From: Escherichia coli
Lineage (GTDB): Bacteria; Pseudomonadota; Gammaproteobacteria; Enterobacterales; Enterobacteriaceae
Assembly: GCF_024502345.1 (NCBI RefSeq)
Contig: NZ_JALDNN010000003.1
Reading direction: 5' to 3' (one strand)
Length of the DNA stretch: 64,000 nucleotides
The stretch's first letter is position 1; every line of letters begins with the position of its first letter. The position numbers are program-made. Shown one piece after another: positions 21,001 to 24,000 of the stretch.

Positions 21001-24000
21001 CGGTCTGCTCTTACATCCTACCTGGGCAGCAGCTGGCTACGGTGATCGGGTATTAAAATAGAACCGGTCTGTTTTACCGCAGATTCAACGCCCCGCACCT
21101 AGCGTAAAATCGCCTTTCCCGGATGCCCTCCTTAGTCGTCCGGCACGATGGCGCTACTCCCAGCGATAAGGGGTAAAATAGTCCTCGTTAACAGCAAGAA
21201 ATTCGGTCAGGGAATGCATCGCCTTCGTGTCATATGCCGTCACAATAAAACGGTATCCGTCCACCGTTTCGATGTAGCTGATCCCCCGTGGCGTGCAACT
21301 GGATTTCACAACTTCCGCCGTCATCATAAACTGCCCTTGCGGGAATTCCGGTGACAGGTAGATAAAGCCAGTGGTGGCTGATGACGGGTTGGCATTCATC
21401 AGCACGCTGTTAAATTGCTTTCCGTGCCGCGCCGGAATCAACGCGCTCCCCGCTGTCGCCTGAGTCATCAACTGGCGGATCAGGGTTTCCTCTTTATCTG
21501 AGCTGTAGGCGCGAACATCATTTTCAGCCCCGGAGCGTGAGTAGACGCCGACATGAGCAAGACGTCGGTACTCGTTACGCATATAGGCATGACAGGATGC
21601 ACCGGCTCGCCCCTGAAGAGTGACGCCAAAGTCTTCACATAACATCAGTACCTGGCGCAGGTTTTTGTCATAGACCGTGGCAGAGAGCGCCAGGTTATAG
21701 CTGATGAATGTCAGCTCAAAAACCCGGGTATGTGCGTCACTAAGGTGTGCCTCCATGCGGATCACTGGTTTCTCCGTCATTGGAAACGGCGTACCGGCCA
21801 AGCAGTACGAGGTAACATCGCTAAAACACTCGTCGATCACACTGGCAATGACCGTATCGGCGTCAATGACAGCCGGAGCTGGAACATAAATCTGAAACTG
21901 TCCTTCAGTGCCCGGTTGGATCAGGACGGGGTATAGACGCGGGGAATTGAGTTGTTCGCAGTCGGCATTGATCAGTTCTGTCCAACCGGGTTTTCCGGTG
22001 GGAGCATCAAGGCGAAGACCCAGGTTATCGCAGAAGTCGACGATCTGGCGGGAGTGCTCCACCATCACTGCCCCGGAGAGTGTCAGACCGTGCGTAACCA
22101 TCTGCATCTCACTCGTCCGGGTCTGGGAGTTCTGGGACCAGGGCTGTAATGAAAGCGTCGTCCGACTTAAGGAGGGAATGATGGTTTCATTCAGAGGTTC
22201 AATAAGCTGGCAATGCGCATACAGCCGGGTGGCGAGGAAGTCAAATATGAAGCTTGCCTGTTGTTTTGTGCTGGCCTGAATATAAAACATCGCATCCATG
22301 CCTGAATCCCGGGATGAAATACCGGGTGATGCTGCCAACTTACTGATTTAGTGTATGATGGTGTTTTTGAGGTGCTCCAGTGGCTTCTGTTTCTATCAGC
22401 TGTCCCTCCTGTTCAGCTACTGACGGGGTGGTGCGTAACGGCAAAAGCACCGCCGGACATCAGCGCTATCTCTGCTCTCACTGCCGTAAAACATGGCAAC
22501 TGCAGTTCACTTACACCGCTTCTCAACCCGGTACGCACCAGAAAATCATTGATATGGCCATGAATGGCGTTGGATGCCGGGCAACAGCCCGCATTATGGG
22601 CGTTGGCCTCAACACGATTTTACGTCACTTAAAAAACTCAGGCCGCAGTCGGTAACCTCGCGCATACAGCCGGGCAGTGACGTCATCGTCTGCGCGGAAA
22701 TGGACGAACAGTGGGGATACGTCGGGGCTAAATCGCGCCAGCGCTGGCTGTTTTACGCGTATGACAGGCTCCGGAAGACGGTTGTTGCGCACGTATTCGG
22801 TGAACGCACTATGGCGACGCTGGGGCGTCTTATGAGCCTGCTGTCACCCTTTGACGTGGTGATATGGATGACGGATGGCTGGCCGCTGTATGAATCCCGC
22901 CTGAAGGGAAAGCTGCACGTAATCAGCAAGCGATATACGCAGCGAATTGAGCGGCATAACCTGAATCTGAGGCAGCACCTGGCACGGCTGGGACGGAAGT
23001 CGCTGTCGTTCTCAAAATCGGTGGAGCTGCATGACAAAGTCATCGGGCATTATCTGAACATAAAACACTATCAATAAGTTGGAGTCATTACCGAAATACC
23101 GAAAAGTTTCATTTTTTACCTTAATGGATGAGCGATTTATAATCATGCGCCGACAGGTGGACGTTATGTACGCCATCGTTCCACTCAAAGAATAGCCGAT
23201 ATTTTGAATTAACTCGAATGGAAGAATACCGGTTTGCGGTCATTCTTAAGCGTTCGTACCGCAAACTACCAGATAACAATTCGCGTTCGTTTTTAACATT
23301 ATTTAACGTTTCCAGTCTGCATGAAATCGCATTAATCAGTTCAGCAGGAATGCCTGCCGTGGATTTTCCATTACGGAAAAACTTTTCCAATCGCCTGTCT
23401 TTAAATGAATGGATCATATTTTCCTCCGTAACGAAATGAGTTTAAATAAATAAGAATTAAAAAAGCCTAAATCTAATTTATTACATCCCGAGGATTCTGG
23501 CTGCGACCGTCAGTTGTTTATCACTTAATGGAAATTTGCGTGATAACGTCGACTTCAGGCTGTTCAAAAAACTGTTCTCGCCGTCTTGCTGCGTGATGGC
23601 GTCCACCAGTTCTTGGTGGTTCTGACACCAGAGGTTGAACGCGGAAGTCTTTGATTGAACAGCACGTTGACGCTCTGCTGCCTGAGCGGCTGAGATCTTG
23701 CGAGCAGCTTCTGGGTATATGCGATACAGTGCAGTCAGGGTGTAACAGGTACGGGTAGTGACCAGGCTATAGCCAGTGGCATTACAGGCAATACAGCGGC
23801 TCTTATAAAAGTGATTGCGTTCGCCACGTCCATTGCATTTATTGCAAGTAACACGGTAAATATATTCCCCGGTGCCTTTTACTGAATCAATACACTTAAT
23901 CTTAGCGTTATCGATTGCCATTCCGCTACGGTCAAAGTATTTATCCATTTTTGATTCCTCAGGTTTGGTCTGAAGTAATAATGACAGATTGGCCTCGCTG

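Follow-up and report, generated by a model that had tools for sequence, protein, structure and literature searches.

An IS1 insertion on an IncHI1 plasmid splits a conserved cassette that joins a HigB-like toxin gene to a large, seemingly dispensable partner

The HigBA system of the Proteus vulgaris plasmid Rts1 consists of a toxin of about 95 residues that matches the Pfam family PF05015, encoded first and separated by only a few nucleotides from the next gene, which encodes HigA, a partner of about 100 residues with a helix-turn-helix (HTH) domain. The residues of P. vulgaris HigB that are critical in vivo are His54, Asp90, Tyr91 and His92 (PMC5027501). Here we describe a related locus in a 64,000-nucleotide stretch of Escherichia coli DNA (contig NZ_JALDNN010000003.1, assembly GCF_024502345.1; this whole stretch is referred to below as the window), which is IncHI1 plasmid backbone throughout. 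The locus is a cassette of three genes on the minus strand, encoding a zinc-ribbon protein, a HigB-like protein and a large protein. It resembles HigBA of Rts1 in toxin size, in the PF05015 match, in its toxin-first order and in the few nucleotides that lead to the next gene. Unlike in Rts1, the partner is a protein of 393 residues with no detectable DNA-binding domain rather than a HigA, and its gene, the third of the cassette, is interrupted at codons 4–7 by the insertion sequence IS1. With moderate confidence we favour a joint reading in which an ordinary IS1 has split a conserved three-gene cassette and the large protein is a dispensable partner, not the sole neutraliser, of the HigB-like protein.

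The IS1 element is complete in its sequence, open reading frames (ORFs) and inverted repeats, and occupies positions 22325–23092 on the plus strand. Read directly from the window (20900–23900), its 768 bp begin with GGTGATGCTGCC... and end with ...GGAGTCATTACC. The terminal sequences GGTGATGCTGCCAACTTACTGAT... and ...ATCAATAAGTTGGAGTCATTACC pair as 23-nt imperfect inverted repeats (22325–22347 and 23070–23092) that are 78% complementary. The ORF listing places insA at 22380–22655 and the insB' frame at 22574–23077, both on the plus strand, and the A6C motif (AAAAAAC) for −1 frameshifting was read in the sequence at 22631–22637. As the preliminary description of this locus had noted, the element is flanked by a perfect 9-bp duplication, GAAATACCG, at 22316–22324 on the left and 23093–23101 on the right (repeat family D7). 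By chance, a particular 9-mer would be repeated at a set position with a probability of 4^-9, or about 4e-6, and GAAATACCG is therefore regarded as a genuine target-site duplication. All of the features expected of the IS1 family were found, namely the length with the inverted repeats, insA and insB' with the A6C motif, and the 9-bp duplication together with an empty site. Homologous elements in matching records are annotated as 'IS1-like element IS1B family transposase'.

Removal of IS1 and one copy of the duplication yields an 80-nt junction that is matched exactly in the IncHI1 plasmid pHCM1 (NC_003384.1) of Salmonella Typhi CT18, and over the rebuilt region of 2,324 bp the identity to pHCM1 is 99.87%. 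The exact empty site is also present in the IS-free loci L024–L028, so that the pre-insertion sequence proposed earlier agrees with its IS-free relatives. The rebuilt large gene comprises 1,182 nt encoding 393 residues (MKLFGISSRDSG...), the sole difference from WP_000765095.1 being G310S. Its body, from the last base of codon 4 to codon 393 and the stop, lies at 21154–22324 on the minus strand, and its severed 5' end (ATG AAA CTT TT) at 23102–23112 on the same strand; these rebuilt coordinates were rechecked. The original ATG had been placed beside the higB-like stop codon. It does rebuild in frame, and its position is now corrected to 23112–23110 (minus strand), 8 nt past the stop at 23123–23121. 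At codon 310 (window position 21408) the window encodes Ser, where every other orthologue has Gly, a residue that is also almost invariant, within an F-N/D-G-V/I-L motif, in stand-alone homologues of the C-terminal domain described below. Private decay of the gene after the insertion was considered as the origin of G310S and rejected, Ser 310 being common in IS-free assemblies (P0060, 304 blocks) and thus a polymorphism.

The IS1 junction was absent from the plasmids of PLSDB and from the complete E. coli genomes searched. A look-up with the 381-residue protein that starts at the internal Met13 (P0060) led to the 304 blocks of public assemblies, most of them IS-free copies (L024–L028). At least one Joint Genome Institute metagenome contig (L029) carries the identical junction followed by 70 nt of the IS1 left end, at which point the contig breaks, and contig L030 of an NCBI assembly (GCA_010265115.1) breaks at the junction, beginning one base within the duplication. 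An exact-junction scan of the metagenome contig collection gave no matches, even though L029 was reached through the protein look-up. Because the junction recurs in L029 and L030, the insertion is inherited in the sampled lineage and is neither a one-off nor an assembly artefact, although the count of carriers stays small (these two contigs). The IS1 event is ordinary, real and inherited.

Beside the IS1 allele of the window, which is a further independent inactivation with the higB-like gene intact, the large gene has been broken several times on other plasmids. In two IncHI2 plasmids, L014 (at about 3381–3383) and L016 (976–978), codon 26 is changed from CAG to TAG (Q26*) and the higB-like gene is unchanged. 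A 99-nt stretch containing this stop codon has an exact match in 293 of the 1,024 IncHI2 plasmids in PLSDB, from Salmonella, E. coli and Klebsiella. In records with Q26* the gene is annotated from a downstream start, as a 'flavin reductase' of 315 or 347 residues, or the stretch is left unannotated. In plasmid pIncHI2-1502264 an IS903B cuts the large gene after about residue 158 and the remaining C-terminal 60% is absent from the record, and in pR18.0450_263k an IS21 lies within the gene at about residue 249. The toxin protein of the Q26*, IS903B and IS21 plasmids is identical (WP_000581857.1). No disruption of the zinc-ribbon gene was seen in the sampled plasmids with a knocked-out large gene. 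One more candidate, pELE1-215, was not counted, its genes being fragmented throughout, probably by sequencing error. The truncated alleles have no retained region in common, except possibly residues 79–158 if the Q26* allele restarts at Met79. Repeated inactivation beside an identical toxin gene argues that the large protein is not an indispensable antitoxin, a role that these comparisons of sequence make unlikely. The preliminary description had raised the possibility of an antitoxin or immunity factor whose interruption has consequences for plasmid maintenance, an idea that is largely unsupported and that the Q26*, IS903B and IS21 knock-outs contradict in part. The broader idea of an unconventional partner holds in so far as the pairing is conserved at a spacing of 8–15 nt.

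In the window, the large gene has lost through the insertion both its own start codon and its close junction with higB-like, and the 768 bp of IS1 that now lie between the two genes are oriented the opposite way. The old start codon now opens a remnant of 13 residues that ends at 23071, inside the IS1 right end. Expression driven by IS1 from a hybrid start (MAASPGISS...) had been suggested for what remains. This start is a TTG in the IS1 left end (22336–22338, minus strand) that lacks a Shine-Dalgarno sequence and follows a stop by four codons. The ORF at 21154–22338 begins there only because each ORF was listed from the first possible start that follows a stop. A promoter scan of 22150–24100 found no sigma-70-like site on the strand of the large gene at the IS1 end or the junction. 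An outward-facing −35-like hexamer, TTGGCA, lies 8 nt from the left tip of IS1, and the candidate −10 hexamers (ATCCCG, CATCCC and TCCCGG) are unusable. As the IS1 genes also point the opposite way, the evidence speaks against the suggested IS1-driven expression. The most plausible surviving translation start is the ATG of Met13 (22297–22299, minus strand), which gene callers choose in IS-free copies as well (P0001, P0007, and P0060 in L024–L028). IS1 insertions are polar in either orientation. Because of this polarity, and because the insertion created neither an outward promoter nor a ribosome-binding site, the large protein is most likely made in greatly reduced amounts or not at all. A weak terminator-like hairpin inside IS1 (22451–22465, on the minus, or operon, strand) lies in the path of read-through from the higB-like gene. 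The transposase genes of IS1, on the plus strand, converge with the higB-like gene on the minus strand, and transcription from them may act as antisense and dampen higB-like expression. Taken together, the IS1 allele most likely knocks down, probably by polarity, a partner gene that carriers can do without, and it is tolerated and inherited.

The higB-like gene itself (23121–23417, minus strand) is intact and encodes 98 residues identical to WP_000581856.1. Its assignment to the HigB family, made earlier from sequence features, is confirmed by a match of residues 4–90 to the Pfam family HigB-like_toxin (PF05015, E=3.8e-16). The protein also matches phrog_3066, 'toxin of TA system' (toxin-antitoxin system), with E=1.8e-18, and the solved structures of P. 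vulgaris HigB (4MCT and 4YPB) with E about 3e-5 to 7e-5. Of the four critical residues of the Rts1 toxin, two have counterparts here, Asp90 in D92 and Tyr91 in Y93, whereas His54 and His92 are replaced by Glu55 and Lys94. Tyr 93 and Lys 94 are invariant in five diverged orthologues, Asp 92 is present in four of the five (Asn in L007), and Glu 55 is replaced by Lys in L010. Active sites of the RelE family are variable. One identical HigB-like protein is found in about 1,025 IncHI2 plasmids of PLSDB, and between IncHI1 and IncHI2 the gene shows proportions of nonsynonymous (pN) and synonymous (pS) differences of 0.057 and 0.66, which make it the most constrained gene of the cassette. Its G+C content is 40% (42% at third codon positions, GC3) versus 53% (GC3 61%) for the large gene, a contrast that hints at separate origins or different constraints. 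The usual partner of this family was said to be HigA, and canonical HigA does lie directly downstream in relatives of 37% identity or less (L013). No HigA-like ORF was found in the 64-kb window, and near the higB-like gene there was no Rfam match to indicate an RNA antitoxin and no tandem repeat array. Searches of the literature for the locus in IncHI1, IncHI2 or R27 yielded only generic 'higB/higA' listings and no study of this locus. A promoter-like sequence, TTTACC-17-TATAAT (10 of 12 positions), is present at 23115–23143 on the plus strand, in native sequence over the higB-like stop codon and antisense into the gene; its hexamers fall partly inside coding sequence, so their conservation is of little information.

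The order zinc-ribbon gene (156–169 residues), higB-like gene (98 residues) and large gene (about 393 residues) is kept in the loci L007–L010 and in IncHI2. The large protein of these loci is 30–56% identical to that of the window in the first four and 62% identical in IncHI2, and the gap between the higB-like and large genes measures 8–15 nt in IncHI1, IncHI2 and L007–L010. In PLSDB the two genes co-occur at a ratio near 1:1, with about 1,298 records of the IncHI1/HI2-type higB-like gene and 1,304 of the large gene. For all three cassette genes pN between IncHI1 and IncHI2 is far below a saturated pS, with values of 0.233 and 0.69 for the large gene and 0.206 and 0.73 for the zinc-ribbon gene. 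These patterns point to long-term purifying selection on the three genes and mark the higB-like and large genes as conserved partners in one operon. None of the three proteins has a family match at E≤1 in PADLOC-DB v2. Judged as a type II TA system, the locus has the tight and conserved gene pair, whereas neither an antitoxin that is never lost beside an intact toxin nor an HTH-containing HigA is found.

The large protein consists of two repeats of about 105 residues each (residues 12–117 and 142–248) followed by a C-terminal PH/SANTA-like barrel at about 300–393. The duplication was recognised by profile self-comparison (hhalign probability 95.8%, E=6.6e-9) and agrees with the AlphaFold2 model, in which a β-β-α / β-β-β-α pattern is repeated; residues 79–158 are the best conserved and most confidently modelled part. 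The earlier account of a large product lacking an HTH domain stands, with no HTH domain and no match in Pfam (E≤10), NCBIfam, PADLOC or PHROGs, and comparison with Protein Data Bank sequences and families gave nothing beyond chance-level matches to deaminases (E about 0.4). The name 'flavin reductase' that NCBI and UniProt attach to the protein (WP_000765095.1 and WP_164846946.1) was not upheld, as there is no PF01613 match, no other Pfam or NCBIfam profile and no split-barrel fold that binds flavin mononucleotide to support it. The family is small; its members fall into 17 clusters when grouped at 90% identity, and it has 38 representatives.

Stand-alone homologues of the C-terminal domain, 110–145 residues long (P0031–P0053, with AFDB matches from Pseudomonas), share with the large protein the core F(D/N)G(V/I)L ... 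G.(I/V)F ... DG.F..T.E(I/V)V ... Y(I/V)ET..G.RY(L/I) ... N..YF...(Q/R)W and a barrel of six strands capped by two helices, but they lack its two N-terminal repeats. They sit among small accessory genes on plasmid- or phage-like contigs with ParB, DNA ligase and Xre-MbcA-type genes, and a search for HigB genes among their neighbours found none adjacent. Two of them, P0036 and P0046 (L003 242–1038 and L004 2083–2950), are each preceded by a conserved acidic protein of about 128 residues (MNKTVAIV.INET...HPEHALTL), which may be paired with the stand-alone domain in a conserved arrangement of its own on other mobile elements. Comparison of this acidic protein with the N-terminal repeats showed no relationship, and it was discarded as a split piece of the large protein.

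The zinc-ribbon gene (23481–23948, minus strand), first of the trio, encodes 155 residues with a CXXCXGXG-like motif, is named 'YuiA family', and has only weak matches, of DnaJ-finger or anti-TRAP-like type. In a tblastn search, 1,849 of its 1,851 matches, in IncHI1/HI2 plasmids, have a coverage of at least 80%. In IncHI1/HI2-type loci it lies between the gene for the immunoglobulin-like (Ig-like) protein RSP and the higB-like gene. In Klebsiella IncHI1B (L023 2986–6042, pNDM-TJ03) a YuiA-family homologue is found directly upstream of the RSP gene and far from higB-like. Because the Klebsiella homologue adjoins RSP and not higB-like, the linkage looks like synteny with RSP, which suggests that the zinc-ribbon protein is functionally linked to RSP and that its place in the cassette reflects the plasmid backbone. 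A 392-residue gene near this homologue was compared with the large protein and is unrelated. About 830 Klebsiella plasmids of the IncFIB/IncHI1B type encode a 103-residue HigB-like protein of 41–44% identity (L011 3001–3658; L012 3001–3641), followed after 10–11 nt by a protein of 105–111 residues without a Pfam match and then by a predicted membrane protein. The 105–111-residue protein was likewise examined as a possible split piece of the large protein and is unrelated to it.

IS1 has transposed into the third gene and parted the large gene from its start codon and from higB-like. According to the interpretation that we favour, this would have left the large gene reduced in expression or silent, with at best a product restarted at Met13 that lacks the first β-strand of repeat 1. 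Carriers would tolerate this loss because the large protein, though conserved, is a dispensable partner of the HigB-like protein and not its sole neutraliser. With its two repeats and PH/SANTA-like barrel it would probably be a protein-binding adaptor or regulator that acts with, or on, a ribosome-dependent RNase of the HigB family. That RNase would have low toxicity when unassisted, owing to weak expression of a gene of 40% G+C, to the altered active site, or to both. Several points weigh against this account. The argument from polarity draws on general knowledge of IS1, and the scan found three terminator-like sites where 2.0 are expected by chance. The tight, conserved toxin-first spacing is what would be expected of a cognate antitoxin, and so is the apparent exchange of the downstream gene in Klebsiella IncHI1B for an unrelated gene of 105–111 residues, a pattern that is the best evidence for the large protein as an antitoxin. 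The knock-out alleles could still give partial products, residues 79–158 being in principle kept by both Q26* and IS903B, and antitoxins encoded by the host or elsewhere on the plasmid could cover for a lost large protein.

If the 393-residue protein were the cognate, unconventional antitoxin, enough of it would still have to be made in the window, through a promoter supplied by IS1 and translation from the hybrid TTG or Met13. Its coding sequence is intact from codon 5 on, the toxin-first order and the short gap have outlasted divergence of the protein to 30–56% identity, distant relatives carry a canonical HigA at the same position, and no HigA is present nearby or across the window. In addition, the one stretch that Q26* and IS903B alleles may both retain, residues 79–158, is also the best conserved and modelled, for which reason the antitoxin model keeps a low probability in our estimate. 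It is opposed by the independent inactivations beside an identical toxin gene, one of which has reached about 29% of IncHI2 plasmids while another deletes the C-terminal 60%, as well as by the lack of a DNA-binding domain, by a hybrid start with no promoter-like site or Shine-Dalgarno sequence, and by the existence of the C-terminal domain family elsewhere in the absence of HigB. Less probable again is that the toxin is neutralised by the 155-residue zinc-ribbon protein encoded upstream, which would match the classical order with the antitoxin gene first, and that the large gene is an unrelated passenger whose disruption has no effect on the toxin. The zinc-ribbon gene does always accompany higB-like, at full length, in IncHI1/HI2, is kept in all five diverged loci and is undisrupted in every sampled knock-out plasmid, but a small gene is also a small target for disruption. 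The gap of 29–63 nt to a higB-like gene that has its own strong GGAGG site, the Klebsiella IncHI1B arrangement in which higB-like has no such neighbour, and the weakness of the family matches all make this role very doubtful.

Knock-outs of the large gene that are not only tolerated but spread would also be expected if there were no addiction module at all, with the HigB-like protein harmless until triggered and the large protein serving to sense the trigger, to activate the HigB-like protein or to direct it to its target, as part of phage defence, for instance, or while the plasmid establishes itself following conjugation. The putative protein-binding modules of the large protein, the occurrence of its C-terminal domain family among accessory genes with ParB, DNA ligase and Xre-MbcA-type genes, and the far stronger constraint on the HigB-like protein than on the large protein fit such a triggered effector. 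PADLOC has no match for any of the three proteins, no experimental or comparative tie to phage or conjugation phenotypes was found, and the literature search found no study of the locus; we regard this possibility as unlikely, if somewhat less so than either antitoxin assignment. A more specific and speculative version, which we would put forward only very tentatively, is that the higB-like and 393-residue genes form a new two-component module in which a HigB-family RNase is activated, targeted or conditionally restrained by a large repeat/PH-like sensor or adaptor. Were this true, loss of the large protein, as by IS1, would inactivate the system without killing the cell, and the trigger might be phage attack or entry of the plasmid into a new host.

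Elsewhere in the window, a second copy of IS1 lies at 6087–6854 in the opposite orientation, with 99.2% identity to the copy at 22325–23092 (6 differences), and neither copy appears to be simply derived from the other. In several of the best-matching IncHI1 plasmids an IS1 is annotated within the matches to window positions 1100–20000. Divergently from the cassette, two plus-strand ORFs at 24769–25584 (271 residues) and 25734–26510 (258 residues) encode hypothetical IncHI backbone proteins that are apparent paralogues, with the common motifs ELAxI(V/I)..LLV.P.LL.EL and HI(R/H)AAHxGLVL(S/T).

IncHI1 and IncHI2 plasmids carry multidrug resistance, typhoid-associated resistance and mcr-1 colistin resistance, and automated annotation frequently reduces their stability functions to the entry 'higB/higA'. 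The backbone HigB-like gene described here occurs on practically all IncHI1 and IncHI2 plasmids and is paired there with a repeat/PH-like partner in place of HigA. This conserved and uncharacterised protein of 393 residues, mislabelled as a flavin reductase, would be dispensable in large and successful plasmid lineages. An active toxin would have to be restrained by something other than the large protein; if the toxin is inactive, predictions of plasmid persistence should not treat it as an addiction system. The IS1, Q26*, IS903B and IS21 alleles provide ready-made natural mutants.

When set beside known systems, the insertion resembles classical polar IS1 insertions in its 768-bp element, its 9-bp duplication and its position between promoter-proximal and distal genes of an operon. 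Hybrid promoters created by IS1 were reportedly described by Prentki and colleagues in 1986. With these the window shares the −35-like hexamer near the left tip of IS1, whereas a usable −10 at the right distance is missing here and no hybrid promoter is predicted. The large partner also departs from a classical antitoxin in being often lost while the toxin gene persists. The HigB-like proteins of Klebsiella IncFIB/IncHI1B plasmids (pNDM-MAR type) belong to the same subclade, with MIHSF...SSIRV.SKYRL motifs in common, and their genes too are placed first, ahead of a downstream gene that is not higA. They differ in the small size of the downstream protein, in the absence of an adjacent zinc-ribbon gene, and in the C-terminus of the toxin, which reads AHAHA in Klebsiella and HDYKSLIH here.

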